From a virus (lineage: Duplodnaviria > Heunggongvirae > Uroviricota > Caudoviricetes), in the IMG/VR virus record IMGVR_UViG_2534681673_000007, positions 1 through 37,562 of that record: 37,562 nt of DNA, one strand, 5' to 3'. The number at the start of each line of letters is the position of its first letter. Position 1 is the stretch's first letter. Shown here one piece after another: positions 27,506-36,617 of this stretch. The notes beneath the pieces were generated by a model. That model was given only the letters and a program-made list of their open reading frames with translations. It was not told the origin of the DNA and made no database searches. Made by a program: the position numbers and the translations under genes.

Positions 27506-29005
<1,500 letters not shown>

Positions 29006-31112: not shown

Positions 31113-31678
31113 GCGTTAGTTTCTCCACAACCAGAAGCAATCGACGCCACGACGCCCGGAGCTGCACACTCGCGGGCGTCATTACTTTCTGAAATGCAAA
31201 AAATTTTGTAGACAAGTGCTGCATGCTCCTGCAGCTTCGAAATTGAGAGATACAGCTCGTCGTTAATTGCTGTCTTCTCATGCGGTTCCACTACACCGTC
31301 TTCGATTGCTGAACGAATCTGTTTTGAATAACTGCCGATCTGTTCAATGACTTCCAGCAGACGCTGGTTAATATCGGCGTTGTCCACATCCTCGACGTCA
31401 GGAAGAGACACAAAGACGCCATTTGCAGACTGCGCCACAGCATCAGCAATGAAGTGAGTGCCACCAGCACGCTGTAAAACCATTGCCCATCCCAGCGGGA
31501 AAATCTGATCGCCATCTGCACGAAGGCGGTTGAATAAAGCGTTTTCTGTTACATCGAGCCAGTCAGCCGCTTCAGCGTAACCACCCGGCAACGCCGCGAT
31601 AGTTTTTCTGACAGCTTTCACGTACCACTCAGGCTGTTTTTCTATTTTCCAGTGATGCTTACCCACGATTAGCCTCAT
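31109..31678 (-). CDS. Hypothetical regulatory protein in the cII position (possibly YdaT-like)
   Basis: 189-aa ORF immediately downstream of the cro-like gene. Family assignment is tentative, from position and my recollection of YdaT-type proteins. Confidence 0.4.
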
Positions 31679-31916: not shown

Positions 31917-31933
31917 TGTACCTCCGGTGTACA
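31917..31933. promoter_or_regulatory. Operator-like site TGTACC-TCCGG-TGTACA, overlapping the cro RBS/promoter region
   Basis: Inverted repeat read from the sequence in the 90-bp cI/cro intergenic region. Confidence 0.45.
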
Positions 31934-31966: not shown

Positions 31967-31983
31967 TGTACCTTAACGGTACA
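31967..31983. promoter_or_regulatory. Operator-like site TGTACC-TTAAC-GGTACA (perfect inverted repeat)
   Basis: Second copy of the same 17-bp architecture, 50 bp from the first, in the cI/cro intergenic region. Confidence 0.45.
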
Positions 31984-32000: not shown

Positions 32001-32674
32001 ATGAAAACAATCCATGACATCCGGCGGTCTAACGCCAGAAAACTGAGAGATGGTGTTGGCGGGAATTCTTCCTTTGCCACTATGATTGATCGCGAGCCAA
32101 CCCAGACCAGCAGGTTTATGGGAGATGGTGCTACTAAAAATATCGGTGACAGCATGGCACGACACATCGAAAAATGTTTCGACCTGCCTGTCGGATGGCT
32201 CGATCAAGAACACCAGACAACGAACATCACAAAAAACCTGATGTTTCAATCACTAATAAACAAATCACATTAGTCCCTGTCATATCATGGGTACAGGCCG
32301 GAGCATGGAAAGAAGTTGGATATTCTGAGGTTGATTTGAGCACAGCAGAAACGTATCCCTGCCCTGTACCCTGTGGGGAAATGACTTATATCTTGCGGGT
32401 GATAGGTGATTCAATGATTGATGAGTACCGCCCGGGAGACATGATTTTTGTCGATCCTGAAGTACCTGCCTGCCACGGTGACGACGTTATTGCATTGATG
32501 CACGATACAGGTGAAACCACCTTCAAAAGGTTGATAGAAGATGGGACACAGCGTTATCTCAAAGCGTTAAACCCAAACTGGCCTGAGCCTTACATTAAGA
32601 TCAACGGTAATTGCTCTATAATTGGTACAGTGATTTTCTCAGGAAAACCAAGAAGATACAAAATCAAAGCCTAA
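32001..32674 (+). pseudogene. CI-like repressor (N-terminal HTH plus C-terminal LexA-like S24 peptidase domain) with reading frame split at an A6 run (32231-32236)
   Basis: HTH in frame of ORF 32001..32273. S24 domain (PVISWVQAGAW...GDSM...FKRL) in frame of ORF 32174..32674. One extra A would fuse them as ...NITKKPDVSITNKQITLVPVISW... Confidence 0.6.
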
Positions 32675-32686
32675 TCAATGTTTATG

Positions 32687-32710
32687 AACCTGCTTCGGCA
32701 GGTTTTTTAT
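32687..32710 (+). terminator. Rho-independent terminator after the repressor gene (AACCUGC-UUCG-GCAGGUU plus UUUUUUAU)
   Basis: 7-bp stem with UUCG tetraloop and U-tract, 13 nt after the repressor stop. Confidence 0.65.
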
Positions 32711-32712
32711 AC

Positions 32713-32740
32713 TTGACAATGTACCTTTGAGATACATAAT
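32713..32740 (+). promoter_or_regulatory. pL-like early promoter (TTGACA, 16-bp spacer, CATAAT) overlapped by operator-like site TGTACC-TTTGA-GATACA (32720-32736)
   Basis: Consensus -35 and near-consensus -10 read directly. Third copy of the TGTACC-N5-GGTACA motif sits in the spacer. Confidence 0.5.
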
Positions 32741-32850
32741 GTACCCAAGCGAAACAACGAACAGGCAGGACGCCCACGAAGTAGCCGCCTGGGGCATATG
32801 AAGTCCAGGATGATTCGTTAGCAACAAAAAAGCGCCCTACAGGACGCTTA

Positions 32851-32862
32851 GCTCTTTAACAA
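32851..32862 (+). promoter_or_regulatory. boxA-like element GCTCTTTAACAA in the early-left leader
   Basis: 11 to 12 of 12 match to the rrn/lambdoid boxA consensus as I recall it; about 50 nt upstream of the first early-left gene. Confidence 0.3.
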
Positions 32863-32907: not shown

Positions 32908-33114
32908 ATGCACAAAACAGAACCCAAAATCGTCGCGCCTGGCTACACAGATGAGGAAATTTATGAGTGGATGACAAAGAAGCTGGCAGCTATAAACCAG
33001 CTTCGTGAATTGCGGTCTTATCGACAGGAAACAATAGGCTCCTTAAAAAAACTGGATCAGGAAATCACGGTTTTATCACAGGATGCTACTTTAGATATTG
33101 TGCAGACAAATTAG
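32908..33114 (+). CDS. Hypothetical small protein (68 aa), first gene of early-left operon
   Basis: ATG at 32908 with GAGGAGG 6 nt upstream. Predicted helical/coiled-coil (KKLAAINQLRELRSYRQETIGSLKKLDQEI). Confidence 0.5.
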   Translation: MHKTEPKIVAPGYTDEEIYEWMTKKLAAINQLRELRSYRQETIGSLKKLDQEITVLSQDATLDIVQTN

Positions 33115-33520
33115 GATCCCATTCATTTTCGTCAAAATCATCAAAGTGATGAATTTGTGATCTCCAGTCTCGATAATCTAAAAATTTCTGGGCGGTTACG
33201 CTTATTTTATCAAGTGTGAGTTCATCCTGAATTGAAAGAAGAAGTTCATCAAATTTCATCTCATTAATCTGTTTTGGCATCCAGTGATGCTTCATCAGAA
33301 TAAGGTGAACCAGAGCCTTTTTCCCATTCAACTGATTATAGGGAGTGCCGAATTTCTTCCGGTGCTCATGTAAGACAAGGTCTAGAAGAGTAAGTAATGT
33401 TGCCCTTGATTCCACTTTGCTTATTTCGACTGATGACACTACCCCACTGATTTCAATGCCCCGATACTTTCCAACATTTTCACAGTGGGATTTGTACAGC
33501 GTATAGATATTACCGGACAT
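33086..33520 (-). CDS. Unknown protein (144 aa) encoded antisense to the early-left operon; lower GC
   Basis: ATG at 33520 with AAGGA 7 nt upstream. 3' end converges on and overlaps the end of the 68-aa gene. No recognised motif. Confidence 0.55.
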   Translation of the reverse strand: MSGNIYTLYKSHCENVGKYRGIEISGVVSSVEISKVESRATLLTLLDLVLHEHRKKFGTPYNQLNGKKALVHLILMKHHWMPKQINEMKFDELLLSIQDELTLDKISVTAQKFLDYRDWRSQIHHFDDFDENEWDPNLSAQYLK

Positions 33521-34064
33521 TTCTTTTCCTTTTGCGTTGTTGGGGATAACCAGATTAACCGAATCCTTGTTGTTGGGGAATAACCAGGTCCACCTCGCCT
33601 GATGTGGCTAAAAGCAGGCACATAACAGCTAAGTATTTTCAACCAGAGAGAATCCTTAGCGTTGTGGTGAATGCGGCTCAGCGCACGCGGGTTAAGGTTG
33701 AGGCTGACAGTCGACCTTCTGTGGATACCCACCCGTCTGGTGTGCAACCTTCGCCAGGCACCGGGAGGCACCCGGCACCACAACTTTATGCTGTGTGTAG
33801 TCCTGGCGATACCAGTTTGTACCCTTGCTTCCGGCTGGTACCGTCCTTTTTACAAAACAGAGAAGAGCATCACCGGACGATGGGCTCATAACCCAATCCA
33901 TCCGGCAGTGACTACCGTAGGTGTTCTTCTCTGTTTTGTGGAGAAACTAACCGCCCCTGCGGGGGCATTTATGGAAACGTAATTGACTCAATAATCGCCG
34001 GATGGCGAGGGATTCTTGCAACCAAAATTCAACGCGGTGCAGCGCATATAACGTGGAGAACGAA

Positions 34065-35226: not shown

Positions 35227-35436
35227 ATGGCAAAACTAATGAAAGCGAGCCAATGGGGACGCCGTGAATTCTCTAATGGCTCAATTCCTGACAACCGAAC
35301 GATAAAACGCTGGGTCGAGAACGGTCTGCTCATGGGGCGTATCGTGGACGGTTCTGTTTTTGTCTGCGAAACAGAAAAATGGGGAGTCGACTCAATGGTT
35401 AGTCAAGCTGTTCGCAAGTTAATAAATGAGGGGTGA
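35227..35436 (+). CDS. xis: Excisionase-like protein
   Basis: 69-aa product, ATG at 35227 with GGAG upstream. Overlaps the integrase start. Motif TIKRWVENGLLMGRIVDGSVFV resembles excisionase-type wHTH. Confidence 0.6.
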   Translation: MAKLMKASQWGRREFSNGSIPDNRTIKRWVENGLLMGRIVDGSVFVCETEKWGVDSMVSQAVRKLINEG

Positions 35437-36617
35437 CCATGGCGGCAAGGCCACGTAAAAAAGAATACAGACATCTTCCTGATTATCTGATTTTTGATAA
35501 AGATCGAGGTGTTTATAAATTCACACTTATTACCGGAAAGAAGAAAAATATAGGTAAGGATAGGGCAATAGCCATTGCAATCGCCAGAGAGTACAACCTG
35601 AGGATGCGACCAGAATTATCTCCATCAGTAGATAATCTTATTAGAGAATCTGGCGGTGTTATCGGAGAAGCAAAACCATTTGCTGAACATGTTGATCACA
35701 TAATGGCCCGAATTATCGAAGACGAACGTCCTTCCCAGAGCACCTTAGATGACTGGAAAAATGACGCTCTACGCGTAAAAGCGTTTTTCGTAAATGTTCC
35801 GGCATGCGATATCGAACTTGAACACGTTAATACCTACATCAACAAATATCATGCCAGCGCATCCGCAAATGTGCAGAACAGAAAGGTCAGCTTTCTTAAA
35901 AAGTTGTTCTCTTATGCGGTCGATGAATCACTAATGCTGGATAACCCGGCCATCAGAAAAAAAATGCGTAGGACTGATGAGAAGAAAAGACGGCGCCTGT
36001 CACTCGAGCATTTTATAGCTATCAGGCAGGCCGCTGCACCATGGTTAAGAACAGCAATGGACCTAGCATTGCAGACTACACATGCACGACTCGAAGTATC
36101 GCGAATCCGTTACTCAATTCGCGAACCTAAAGACGGTATATGTGGATGTGTCTGGTTCGAACAACCACAAAATGGCATATATGGGACGCTTTACATCCAC
36201 AGGCAAAAAGTGCAACAAAAAGAGGCGTCACACGTTGCAATACCAATTGGTGAAGAGTTGAAACGGATAATTGACGATAGCCGAGATAATGTGGCCAGTC
36301 CGTTTGTCGTTCACAGGATCCCAGAACGCCAAGTTAAACGCAGCAAAGAGGTTTCACATCCTACTCAAGTTGCACCGGACTATTTGAGTAGGTCGTTTTC
36401 AGCTACACGGGACAAACTAGGTTTATGCGACAATCTACCAATGGATGAAAGACCAACCTTTCACGAAATTCGAGCACTAGCAGCGCATCTATTCGATCAG
36501 CAGGGTATCGATCCACAAGGACGAATGGCGCACAGCGATGCGAAGTCAACCAAGATCTACACGCAAAATCATATAGATTGGGTTGTCGTTCCCCATGGAG
36601 AAATTAAAGCCAGCTAA
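35433..36617 (+). CDS. int: Tyrosine integrase (lambda Int family)
   Basis: 394 aa. N-terminal arm-binding region similar to lambda Int (HLPDYL...GKDRAIAIAIA). C-terminal catalytic region with PTFHEIRAL...AHSDAKSTKIYTQ (R/H/R/Y pattern). Confidence 0.9.
   Translation: MTMAARPRKKEYRHLPDYLIFDKDRGVYKFTLITGKKKNIGKDRAIAIAIAREYNLRMRPELSPSVDNLIRESGGVIGEAKPFAEHVDHIMARIIEDERPSQSTLDDWKNDALRVKAFFVNVPACDIELEHVNTYINKYHASASANVQNRKVSFLKKLFSYAVDESLMLDNPAIRKKMRRTDEKKRRRLSLEHFIAIRQAAAPWLRTAMDLALQTTHARLEVSRIRYSIREPKDGICGCVWFEQPQNGIYGTLYIHRQKVQQKEASHVAIPIGEELKRIIDDSRDNVASPFVVHRIPERQVKRSKEVSHPTQVAPDYLSRSFSATRDKLGLCDNLPMDERPTFHEIRALAAHLFDQQGIDPQGRMAHSDAKSTKIYTQNHIDWVVVPHGEIKAS

Follow-up and report, generated by a model that had tools for sequence, protein, structure and literature searches.

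A candidate early-left operon leader RNA in a lambdoid prophage, with an STnc100-type module and an initiator-tRNA-like module

The early-left operon of phage lambda opens with a leader in which pL is followed by nutL, an RNase III hairpin, the N gene and the terminator tL1. In the thrS operator of E. coli, the mRNA leader mimics the anticodon arm of tRNA-Thr, binds ThrRS and blocks 30S binding. Initiator tRNA itself is marked by three consecutive G-C pairs together with a CAU anticodon. Canonical copies of the prophage RNA STnc100 (Rfam RF02076)/PasD are transcribed, one being northern-confirmed in EDL933 and another overlapping the Hfq-bound EcOnc27; an expressed, Hfq-associated RNA of about 160–210 nt has been published for canonical copies only (PMC5331693, PMC12711010).

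The window analyzed here, a stretch of 37,562 nucleotides, is a lambdoid prophage of the SfV/e14/ST64B type. A first-pass annotation of its sequence had proposed that the region 33521–33990 is a structured RNA or regulatory leader, a view supported by the folds, the compensatory substitutions and the unconserved reading frame described below. We favor, with a probability of roughly 0.55, the reading that this region is a non-coding leader of the early-left operon, read on the plus strand and built from two RNA modules: an STnc100-type small RNA (module A) and a leader that mimics initiator tRNA (module B). The features on which this reading is based are collected in Table 1.

Table 1. Positions of sequence and structural features in and near the region (window coordinates).
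Feature	Position	Strand	Remarks
Strong promoter-like site TTGACA-16-CATAAT	32713-32740		overlaps TGTACCTTTGAGATACA
boxA-like site	32850-32862		upstream of region
ORF	33439-33783	-	114 aa
Direct repeats TTGTTGGGGA(A)TAACCAG: TTGTTGGGGATAACCAG, TTGTTGGGGAATAACCAG	33537-33553, 33570-33587	+	directly 5' of minus-strand ECs1072-family gene
Conserved block CCACCUCGCCUGAUGUGGCUAAAAGCAGGCACAUAACA	33590-33627	+	two alternative small stems possible: CCAC/GUGG, GCCUG/CAGGC
ORF	33604-33891	+	95 aa
5' hairpin before core	33628-33660	+	MFE fold, alignments; lineage-specific
STnc100-type core	33661-33784	+	Rfam RF02076 match, covariation
P1 closing helix, GUUGUGGUG with CACCACAAC	33661-33669 / 33776-33784	+	covaries
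ORF	33671-33982	+	103 aa
P1a bulged hairpin GCGGC-UCAGC-GC(A)CGC	33673-33688	+	pentaloop UCAGC
ORF	33692-33901	-	69 aa
Pseudoknot AAGGUUG / CAACCUU	33694-33700 / 33745-33751	+	3' strand in P4 loop
P4	33735-33742 / 33752-33759	+	covaries
P5 CCGGG-AGGCA-CCCGG	33761-33775	+	identical to STnc100 family
Single-stranded linker UUUAUGCUGUGUGUAGUCC	33785-33803	+	alignments
Intrinsic terminator T1, stem GGCGAUACCAG / CUGGUACCGUC, then UUUUU (33847-33851)	33805-33851	+	aligns to Rfam model terminator
Module B three-way junction	33847-33944 (module to 33966)	+	MFE folding, covariation
Basal stem S1, 25 bp	33847-33871 / 33920-33944	+	includes T1 U-tract paired to GGAGA
Arm Ha	33873-33905	+	
Arm Ha tip GGGCUCAUAACCC	33882-33894	+	CAU at 33887-33889
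Arm Hb	33906-33919	+	degenerate in window copy
Conserved AACUAAC spacer and small G+C hairpin	33945-33966	+	hairpin at 33953-33966
Junction segment	33953-33990	+	local blastn; SfV and mEp460 annotation

Genomic setting and coding potential

The region lies on the plus strand, flanked by repressor-side morons and by early-left genes (yfdR ... xis, int). Its position upstream of both an antisense 144-aa gene and an HD-domain gene, as first described, is correct, and these genes belong to the ECs1072 family and correspond to yfdR, respectively. In all annotated relatives, the element is found between a cI-like repressor gene, with or without morons, and the first early-left gene, and in all relatives with annotated genes it shares the strand of xis and int. 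Some match to the locus is present in 3,209 of 5,426 complete E. coli genomes, more than half. The junction segment at the 3' end of the region occurs a second time in SfV and mEp460, just upstream of the yfdR homologue (local blastn). Two genes, orf32 and the DUF2303 gene yfdQ, lie between module B and yfdR in these phages, and the doubling of the segment there indicates that both are absent from the window prophage.

Transcription would start at the upstream pL-like promoter, which is separated from the element by the minus-strand ECs1072-family gene (start codon ending at 33520). The sequence TGTACCTTTGAGATACA at this promoter resembles the two OR operators, TGTAC-N7-GTACA. No OL operator adjoining the element was found, the operator-like site being 900 bp upstream at the pL-like promoter, and no consensus sigma-70 promoter is recognizable at 33590–33627 or directly 5' of module A.

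The direct repeats noted in the first-pass annotation are both present, with a start-to-start spacing of about 33–34 nt. The pair is kept in an O157 Rac-like prophage, whose annotated record places it next to a different minus-strand gene, and in Klebsiella phages including Kp4884-1, and is thus not a chance occurrence; Kp4866-6 has a variant pair, CTGTAGGGGT. The repeats are probably a regulatory site, serving either the divergent moron promoter or the leader. A further repeat, GAATCCTT, does occur twice (33561 and 33650), but as an 8-mer it carries no weight. The block that follows (CCACCUCGCCUGAUGUGGCUAAAAGCAGGCACAUAACA) is conserved in SfV, e14, phiES15 and Klebsiella phages, even in cases where what follows it diverges.

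Overlapping ORFs on both strands had been taken as a sign of stop-poor non-coding DNA. The ORFs are present, their products have no match in Pfam or NCBIfam, and the frame is not conserved: the longest stop-free frame differs by lineage, and none is open in phiES15. The ORF at 33671–33982 nevertheless has a counterpart of equal start and length (103 aa) in the K-12 element e14, where it is named YmfH (“hypothetical protein” in RefSeq), and PGAP calls a CDS at the locus. A ymfH clone also came up as a trigger of RcaT, the toxin of retron-Sen2 (bioRxiv 10.1101/2020.06.22.160242), a phenotype that could equally stem from the RNA. That the region codes for a small protein is very improbable, as e14 YmfH and the window ORF are only 54% identical over 70 aa, with the first 31 residues unaligned, although their DNA is 88% identical. 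Moreover, the frame of this ORF is not kept among homologues, PGAP labels close relatives “frameshifted”, and substitutions track base pairing rather than codons. A short upstream ORF from a conserved GUGGAG was discarded upon inspection, since it lacks a ribosome-binding site, falls within S1, and varies in frame and length. A literature search for “ymfH” with “sRNA” returned nothing relevant. The RNA identity corrects the present annotation as a hypothetical, often “frameshifted”, protein (YmfH in K-12) and reopens the results obtained with ymfH clones, such as retron toxin triggering.

The STnc100-type module and its terminator

Judged by sequence and predicted fold, module A (33628–33851) belongs, as a divergent copy, to the STnc100/PasD prophage RNA family. 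The covariance scan against Rfam that the first-pass annotation had suggested was positive for module A at a sub-threshold level and negative for module B, which matches no Rfam family. The segment 33631–33854 aligns to positions 1–206 of the 206 in the STnc100 model (RF02076) with E = 4.1e-6 and 35.8 bits, compared to a gathering score of 47 bits. At the gathering threshold, a scan of the whole window returned isrC only, elsewhere in the window; scanned by E-value, the region matched STnc100 and, by chance, ftsZ-DE, the hairpin ribozyme and PhotoRC-I. Sub-threshold matches are full-length in the window, SfV and phiES15 and partial in ST64B (E = 4e-6 to 3.5e-4). A covariance model that we built from both subfamilies scores the window copy at 71.9 bits and detects diverged cores that immediately precede T1 and module B in Klebsiella, Citrobacter, Pseudocitrobacter, Enterobacter, Phytobacter, Pseudescherichia and phage mEp460. 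The hairpin preceding the core is replaced in other lineages by a different 5' hairpin followed by AGUGCUCUC.

The long-range inverted repeat recognized earlier (GTTGTGGTG with CACCACAAC) is exact and forms the STnc100-type closing helix P1, which holds the UGGUG/CACCA of that helix and whose outer pairs covary (38 sequences). P1a shows the pattern of the first STnc100 hairpin (2 bp, a bulged base, 3 bp and a UNWGC pentaloop), with changes on both sides at three pairs, the early-left copies having G-C for C-G. Together, P1 and P1a have 97.8% of cells paired and a covariation score of 0.179 against 0.074, a value reached by none of 500 shuffles. The P5 hairpin, CCGGGAGGCACCCGG, abuts the 3' strand of the closing helix and is common to module A and STnc100, although its invariance is partly one of ascertainment, the P5 motif having been the scan pattern for the collection.

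We infer a covarying pseudoknot, both in the STnc100 family and in the window copy, from the pairing potential of the P4 loop. MAFFT columns for P4 were too inconsistent for tool-based pair counts, and P4 and the pseudoknot were therefore scored by our own script: complementarity of at least 6 bp was found within the own sequence in 84% of sequences, compared to 34% for cross-pairings. The pseudoknot strands are AAGGCUGG/UCAGCCUU in phiES15, and CCAGUC/GACUGG, AUCAGCA/UGCUGAU and others in canonical STnc100 copies; RNAalifold did not predict the pseudoknot on the alignment made here. The addition of a covarying pseudoknot to the STnc100/PasD fold argues for a specific tertiary structure.

A single-stranded linker, whose core UGCUGUGUGUAGUC is kept across genera, joins this fold to T1 and is a candidate seed or chaperone-binding segment; a search for complementary targets within the window gave nothing beyond chance. 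The T1 stem is replaced in relatives by GGCGUC/GACGCC, GGUUAUCC/GGAUAACC and others, and of 167 distinct sequences containing module B, 163 have a hairpin (mean ΔG −25 kcal/mol) that directly adjoins the U-tract. With its large loop and only five U residues, T1 may be a weak terminator. A riboswitch-like antiterminator, pairing the 3' arm of P4 (UCGCCAGG, 33751–33758) with the foot of T1 (CCUGGCGA, 33802–33809), was rejected, as it is unconserved in ST64B and phiES15 on reading of the alignment.

Termination at T1 would free an RNA of about 190–220 nt, similar in build to the STnc100 RNAs that are expressed and associated with Hfq, and this RNA would itself be expected to associate with Hfq. 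T1 would also control whether polymerase reaches the genes for recombination and excision (yfdR ... xis, int). The location of the core, 3' of an early-left promoter and directly 5' of a terminator like putL (PMC9378689), also brings to mind a cis-acting processive antiterminator of the HK022 put type, which would fold on the growing early-left RNA, bind polymerase and allow read-through of T1 and later terminators. In keeping with this, no N-like protein was recognized, the 68-aa ORF at the N position being without functional annotation. We consider such a role unlikely. The core is pseudoknotted and about 125 nt long, whereas put RNAs consist of two stem-loops in about 70 nt, and blastn against the whole HK022 genome gave nothing beyond chance. 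HK022 has both putL and putR, whereas no second copy is present on the pR side; the search of the window returned only a 16-nt match (31115–31130, E = 0.014). The boxA-like site upstream would offer a different antitermination route, and the canonical family RNAs accumulate in terminated form (about 160–210 nt), which speaks for termination at this site and against read-through.

The three-way junction and its tRNA-fMet-like stem-loop

Module B, which looks new, folds into a three-way junction. The 16-bp stem (33852–33867/33924–33939) of the first-pass annotation is real and extends to the 25 pairs of S1, 10 of which show compensatory changes in homologues. The predicted topology is unchanged across six lineages (MFE −58 to −65 kcal/mol), with 88.7% of cells paired and 21 pairs changed on both sides. 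The covariation score is 0.251 against 0.128; none of 500 shuffles reaches it, and slid controls give at most 0.118. The G-U pairs are consistent with the plus strand only, and prophages from 12 or more genera of enterobacteria keep the module, with substitutions that compensate each other. S1 is plausible as a putative RNase III site. The GCCCC hairpin reported near 33952–33967 is present as GCCCC-UGCG-GGGGC; its stem is GACC/GGUC or GGCGG/CCGCC in relatives, with pairing kept, although the column alignment is too poor for a formal pair count. In relatives, the first early-left gene has its ribosome-binding site a few bases 3' of this hairpin. Arm Hb carries private substitutions in the window copy, which also lacks the usual downstream genes and may be decaying.

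Folding of both strands yields energies lower than those of dinucleotide shuffles, more strongly on the plus strand: z = −3.15 (plus) and −1.73 (minus) for 33625–33860, and −5.44 and −4.20 for 33845–33990. Both long-range pairings named at the outset, now identified as the STnc100-family closing helix and the basal stem of the three-way junction, carry compensatory substitutions, and the covariation analysis in homologous prophages finds such changes in P1, P1a, P4, the pseudoknot and S1. Membership of an Rfam family, the terminator that splits the two modules and the copy of the initiator-tRNA anticodon stem-loop go beyond the first-pass annotation. Long inverted repeats in a structured, stop-poor region are also what a retron msr/msd or another template RNA would offer, an explanation of negligible probability here: the region folds as STnc100 followed by a three-way junction, and the neighbors at homologous loci are the repressor, morons, yfdR, xis and int, with no reverse transcriptase annotated in the loci inspected. 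The earlier rejection of a retron was reasonable, and the architecture found is a different one.

The tip of arm Ha is identical in 13 of 13 bases to the anticodon stem-loop of E. coli tRNA-fMet, with three G-C pairs and the loop CUCAUAA; the family consensus, CGGGCUCAUAACCC, is identical in 14 of 14 bases. The tRNA-fMet sequence contains UCGGGCUCAUAACCCGA (PMC8887418). For all six lineages folded, the prediction at the tip is a 3-bp stem capped by a 7-nt loop. The exact 13-mer is present in 67 of 105 distinct homologues collected via the S1 3' arm only; most homologues are close E. coli relatives, so that such counts overstate the number of independent observations. Among 14 lineages with less than 90% mutual similarity, ascertained without the CAU motif, 13 retain CAU; it is lost in one lineage and in e14, and some lineages vary in the loop (U33 to C, A37 to U, A38 to C). 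ARAGORN detected no tRNA or tmRNA gene in the window, and none at module B in 22 related loci. Two extensions of the match were discarded: a wider similarity of module B to tRNA-fMet, including the D-arm region, aligned locally no better than shuffled controls, and a pairing between the CAU loop and the sequence around the downstream start codon (AUGAG) was seen upon inspection in some lineages only. A literature text search for both motifs returned tRNA papers only, and we found no description of a phage-encoded initiator-tRNA mimic heading an early-left operon.

If the region acts as the two-module leader that we favor, module B would form only in transcripts that read through T1, where it would determine how well the first downstream gene is translated or how stable its message is. 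The mimic would be presented to a recognizer of the tRNA-fMet anticodon arm, for which the P site of the 30S subunit appears the likeliest partner and MetRS is a further candidate. A nuclease that attacks this arm is another conceivable recognizer, and Winther and Gerdes are said to have reported in 2011 that the VapC/MvpT PIN toxin cleaves tRNA-fMet between A38 and C39. With such an enteric toxin as the candidate nuclease, the hairpin would be a decoy or sensor, and the phage RNA would titrate the toxin or serve as its substrate, so that early-left or excision expression would be coupled to toxin activation. The exact, conserved identity to the substrate hairpin and its predicted exposure at the tip of a rigid arm fit this idea. 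So does the presence of module B in phages of Shigella (SfII, SfIV, SfV) and Salmonella (ST64B, 118970_sal3), hosts that presumably carry VapBC systems targeting tRNA-fMet. It is nonetheless rather unlikely, given that no nuclease gene is linked to the element, that the element is equally common in E. coli and at least 10 other genera, and that A38, the equivalent of the cleavage site, varies in some lineages.

As a more general and tentative proposition, which we regard as possible but doubtful, many enterobacterial temperate phages would carry, at the start of the early-left (recombination and excision) operon, an RNA domain with a faithful copy of the initiator-tRNA anticodon stem-loop, directed at the P site or initiation machinery or serving as a decoy or sensor for a tRNA-fMet nuclease; separately, the STnc100/PasD RNAs would be pseudoknotted molecules that bind a protein or a ligand, and not plain base-pairing sRNAs. 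If true, a phage initiator-tRNA mimic would control lysogeny or excision genes or counter a host toxin. A functional mimic would be a new way to tie early or excision expression to host translation initiation or to toxins that attack initiator tRNA.

Comparison with known systems

The closest relatives of module A are STnc100 and the related PasD sRNAs, which are found in prophages of pathogenic E. coli; with these it shares a full-length model alignment, the invariant UGGUGAAU and CACCGGGAGGCACCCGGCACCA, the closing helix, the bulged first hairpin with its UNWGC pentaloop, the pseudoknot to the loop of the penultimate hairpin, the 3' intrinsic terminator and a prophage location. The stem of the first hairpin is GCGGC/GC-CGC in the window, compared to CCCCC/GG-GGG in canonical copies, and the internal hairpins differ. 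Canonical copies reside in the late region, close to Q, stx and lysis genes, frequently as tandem arrays spaced by about 250 nt, and have no module B. In the window and in related prophages, the copy is found instead between cI and the early-left genes, and module B always follows it. This extends the STnc100/PasD family to a second genomic niche, and the difference in context means that function need not be common to module A and the canonical RNAs.

The HK022 putL/putR system likewise places a structured RNA 3' of an early promoter in a lambdoid phage without recognizable N, but there is no similarity in sequence or architecture, and the window has no second copy 3' of pR. Module B resembles the thrS operator in presenting an anticodon-arm look-alike on a 5' leader hairpin upstream of a ribosome-binding site. 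However, another tRNA is mimicked, the gene that follows differs from phage to phage and encodes no synthetase, and the start codon is about 60–110 nt away in relatives and farther in the window. Compared to tRNA-fMet itself, module B has no acceptor, D or T arm and is embedded in an mRNA leader.

Although the region has no recognized N homologue and no boxB-type pentaloop hairpin, and the sequences are unrelated, its overall plan is that of the lambda early-left leader. The two agree in genomic position and strand logic, in an operator-controlled promoter and a boxA-like sequence, in a long perfect leader helix that is a possible RNase III site, and in a terminator placed before the recombination and excision genes.

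Prophage setting and coding status of the region

The window is a lambdoid prophage of the SfV/e14/ST64B type, and its plus strand is "leftward" in lambda terms. Its gene order is common to E. coli prophages, SfV, mEp460, ST64B, phiES15, phiNP, e14 and others. Every annotated record with this order shows a large gap separating the repressor side from the first early-left gene, and this gap carries either no annotation or a doubtful one.

Features of the early-left region of the window
Feature	Position	Strand	Remarks
Two OR operators	31917–31933 and 31967–31983		
cI-like S24 repressor gene	32001–32674	+	
Terminator-like hairpin	32686–32705	+	after repressor gene
Near-consensus promoter TTGACA-16-CATAAT	32713–32740	+	strong promoter-like site
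Operator-like TGTACCTTTGAGATACA	32720–32736		overlapped by promoter; resembles the two OR operators
Hairpin	32830–32849	+	just before boxA-like sequence
boxA-like AGCUCUUUAACAA (also given as AGCTCTTTAACAA)	32850–32862	+	12/13 match to the rrn boxA consensus
68-aa ORF		+	phrog_1744; between repressor and ECs1072-family genes
144-aa gene, ECs1072 family	33086–33520	-	NCBIfam NF033230
Module A	33628–33851	+	divergent STnc100-family RNA
Intrinsic terminator T1	33805–33846, UUUUU 33847–33851	+	
Module B	33847–33966	+	three-way junction
Stem S1, 25 pairs	33847–33871 with 33920–33944	+	first five bases are the T1 U-tract
Arm Ha	33873–33905	+	
Arm Hb	33906–33919	+	short, variable
Small G+C hairpin	33953–33966	+	downstream of conserved spacer
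yfdR	start 34065	+	HD-domain 5'-deoxynucleotidase; follows the 33521–33990 region
Two small genes, then excisionase-like gene		+	between yfdR and integrase
Integrase	35433–36617	+	follows excisionase-like gene

The first-pass annotation proposed that the 470-bp stretch at 33521–33990 is non-coding and may hold a structured RNA or regulatory leader. All of the features that it listed are present in the sequence: several frames are stop-poor on both strands, and both long-range pairings are real, each being a conserved structural helix. In folding, the plus strand outperforms its dinucleotide shuffles (z = -3.15 and -5.44) as well as the minus strand. In the closest relatives, RefSeq labels the region "hypothetical protein, frameshifted"; its e14 label is YmfH. 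e14 YmfH has a common start and length with a 103-aa ORF of the window, but the two proteins align at only 54% over 70 residues, against 88% identity of the DNA. No Pfam or NCBIfam model matched the ORFs of the region, the longest open frame shifts among frames 1, 2 and 3 in 25 distinct homologues and is absent in phiES15, and substitutions track base pairing, not codons. The region is not a protein gene, and an encoded YmfH protein is not favoured.

An expression clone of ymfH has been reported to trigger the retron-Sen2 toxin RcaT (bioRxiv 10.1101/2020.06.22.160242). Since this ORF (e14 locus L010, 2576–2887, homologous to window 33671–33982) overlies both RNA modules, the active agent of the clone could be the RNA. 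A retron as the identity of the region itself is not favoured.

A divergent STnc100-family RNA with its own terminator

In a relaxed Rfam scan, STnc100 (RF02076) aligns over its full length to module A at 33631–33854, with 35.8 bits (E = 4e-6), below the gathering score of 47; SfV, phiES15 and ST64B contain comparable sub-threshold matches. A put-like antiterminator is not favoured. A scan of viral contigs for a shared 22-mer, CACCGGGAGGCACCCGGCACCA, yielded at least 120 loci, most of which are canonical STnc100 copies (57–132 bits), and 38 representatives of the canonical and early-left subfamilies were aligned. The helices that RNAalifold recovers from this alignment are P1, which closes the fold, the first hairpin (P1a) and the invariant hairpin (P5). 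In the STnc100-type helices, 97.8% of cells are paired and covariation is 0.179, compared to 0.074 in shuffles, none of 500 being as high. The P1a stem is GCGGC/GC-CGC in early-left copies and CCCCC/GG-GGG in canonical copies, with the same bulge and pentaloop and compensatory changes at three pairs.

Our own script showed that the penultimate hairpin P4 covaries and has a loop complementary to the strand right after P1a. This makes an H-type pseudoknot, which RNAalifold did not report for the 38-sequence alignment. The pairing is AAGGUUG (33694–33700) with CAACCUU (33745–33751) in the window, AAGGCUGG with UCAGCCUU in phiES15, and CCAGUC/GACUGG, AUCAGCA/UGCUGAU, CUGGUGU/ACACCGG and others in canonical copies. 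At least six contiguous pairs form with the sequence's own loop in 84% of sequences, compared to 34% for crossed loops and strands. The pseudoknot appears to be common to the whole STnc100 family. After P1, a linker with the core UGCUGUGUGUAGUC, conserved across genera, leads to T1, whose stem sequence varies by lineage while the hairpin is kept; it abuts the U-tract in 163 of 167 distinct sequences (mean ΔG of -25 kcal/mol).

A three-way junction and its initiator tRNA-like tip

Module B, which gave no match to Rfam, was located in prophage regions of Escherichia/Shigella, Citrobacter, Enterobacter, Kosakonia, Mixta, Buttiauxella, Leclercia, Erwinia, Phytobacter, Pseudescherichia, Pseudocitrobacter, Klebsiella and others (one genome per species), after removal of ∼10 further matches due to chance. 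Among 35 distinct sequences, 88.7% of its cells are paired, compared to 81.2% in shuffles, and 21 of 44 pairs show changes on both sides. Its covariation is 0.251 versus 0.128, with 0/500 shuffles as high and slid controls at or below 0.118. Ten pairs of S1 are compensated, and in the lower stem of Ha, CCGGG/CCCGG gives way to GCGCAUG/CAUGCGU, CCGAG/CUCGG or CCAGG/CCUGG. The G-U pairs, including those of the U-tract with GGAGA, fit the plus strand only. In relatives, the small G+C hairpin lies just 5' of the ribosome-binding site of the first early-left gene.

A covariance model of our own for the core (P1, P1a, P4, P5 and pseudoknot) detected diverged cores directly 5' of T1 and module B, also in mEp460, and in genera where blastn detects module B alone. 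The core, linker, T1 and module B are thus a single conserved composite unit.

An exact 16-mer, TTGTGGAGAAACTAAC, occurs at 33936–33951 (+), where it forms part of the module B 3' foot, and at 31115–31130 (-), where a ymfL-like gene of the rightward operon ends (E = 0.014). It is sense in both transcripts, and in the rightward operon it serves the following ORF as ribosome-binding region. In most non-E. coli lineages (L007, L014, L037, L042, L003 and others among the collected loci), the 5' flank and P1 5' strand read AGUGCUCUC-NNN-GUUGUGGUGAAU, resembling the module B 3' arm, GGUGCUCUU...GUUGUGUGGAGAA. Either of the two could therefore be a pairing partner of the module B 5' arm, so that an alternative long-range structure is possible; the AGUGCUCUC motif is absent from the lineage of the window. 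In Klebsiella phage Kp4866-6, an insertion of ∼330 nt separates the core from the conserved block upstream (L007, about 2560–2900); it includes a possible ORF of 23 codons and partly duplicates the core 5' flank (GAGTGCGCTTCCAGTTGTGA).

Initiator tRNAs are distinguished by three consecutive G-C pairs adjoining the loop and a CAU anticodon. The tip of Ha, GGGCUCAUAACCC at 33882–33894, is identical to tRNA-fMet at 13/13 bases, and the family consensus, CGGGCUCAUAACCC, at 14/14. A text search of the most conserved motif had led to papers on this tRNA, whose E. coli sequence contains UCGGGCUCAUAACCCGA (PMC8887418). All six lineages folded are predicted to form three G-C pairs that close the 7-nt loop CUCAUAA. 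Because the first collection had been selected with this motif itself, a second was gathered by the S1 3' arm only; the exact 13-mer is present in 67 of its 105 distinct sequences, ∼7 of the 105 being chance matches. The remaining variants are GGGCUCAUUCCCC, GGGCUCAUUACCC, GGGCCCAUCACCC, GGGCCCAUAACCC and a few single changes. CAU is kept in 13 of 14 homologous lineages whose mutual similarity is below 90%. Some lineages vary at the equivalents of U33, A37 and A38. The likeness is lost in one other lineage and in e14, whose loop, UUAAUAA, lacks CAU. There is no tRNA gene at module B, and likeness to the rest of tRNA-fMet outside the stem-loop is not significant. We estimate the chance that a given 3-bp stem and 7-nt loop match one particular tRNA at ∼4^-13. 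Neither module B nor this tip was found in Rfam 15 or the literature searched. We regard tRNA mimicry as a tentative reading, with roughly three chances in ten of being correct.

Possible mechanism and comparison with canonical STnc100

By sequence, the sites at 32686–32862, which precede the 68-aa ORF, resemble pL/OL together with an antitermination site of nut-like or rrn-like type. Transcription of the region would start at the promoter-like site, and the transcript would also carry the hairpin before the boxA-like sequence and that sequence itself. No promoter nearer module A is recognisable in the sequence; one is possible.

From the two folds, terminator, stem-loop identity and synteny observed, we infer a mechanism. 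Stopping at T1 would release an RNA built like canonical STnc100, in which a structured body is followed by a conserved single strand and a U-tailed terminator, and would also bar polymerase from the recombination and excision genes. Transcripts reading through T1 would fold module B, whose 25-bp S1 is a plausible RNase III substrate, parting the upstream RNA from the mRNA. The mimic could act in cis on the start site nearby by engaging the 30S P site or the initiation machinery. Another possible partner is methionyl-tRNA synthetase, an enzyme that reads CAU, and a rival possibility is a tRNA-fMet-specific anticodon nuclease, for example enteric VapC. The initiation machinery would be the best fit, because of the kept GGG/CCC and CAU and the varying positions 33, 37 and 38.

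The repressor, a single gene of ∼230 aa in relatives, is split in the window into two overlapping ORFs (32001–32273 and 32174–32674) by either a frameshift or a sequencing error. Also, orf32 and the DUF2303 gene, which normally follow module B in SfV and mEp460, are missing, and Hb carries private substitutions; together, these suggest that the prophage may be defective. The sequence corresponding to the junction segment 33953–33990 is present twice in SfV and mEp460. The core, T1, S1 and mimic are all intact. The window also encodes a full-length isrC Hfq-binding sRNA at 28565–28687 (-) (RF01387, 150 bits). The rightward operons of mEp460 and SfV contain a C4 antisense RNA and an isrK-like RNA (L003 1323–1511, L004 1226–1414) in an antirepressor-type second immunity region; these are absent from the window.

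Canonical STnc100 copies also occur in tandem arrays of 3–4 copies with ∼250-nt spacing (viral contigs L102 4349–5513, L071 1702–2340 and L055 2265–3380), interspersed with isrI and adjoining tRNA genes, every copy with its own terminator. The L102 array, the only one with ORFs listed, fills the gap between ORFs that resemble Q and lysis genes only in their size and position. Published data on the family all concern canonical copies. Eleven copies are transcribed in EDL933, one confirmed by northern blot (PMC5331693); one overlaps the Hfq-bound EcOnc27 downstream of stx2B (PMC12711010; PMC12370729); and a 2026 preprint relates STnc100 to PasD sRNAs and locates both close to Q and the lysis genes (10.64898/2026.05.13.724894). 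As a sub-threshold variant, module A is new to this known family and occupies a new genomic niche, and the pseudoknot adds to the STnc100 fold recovered here.
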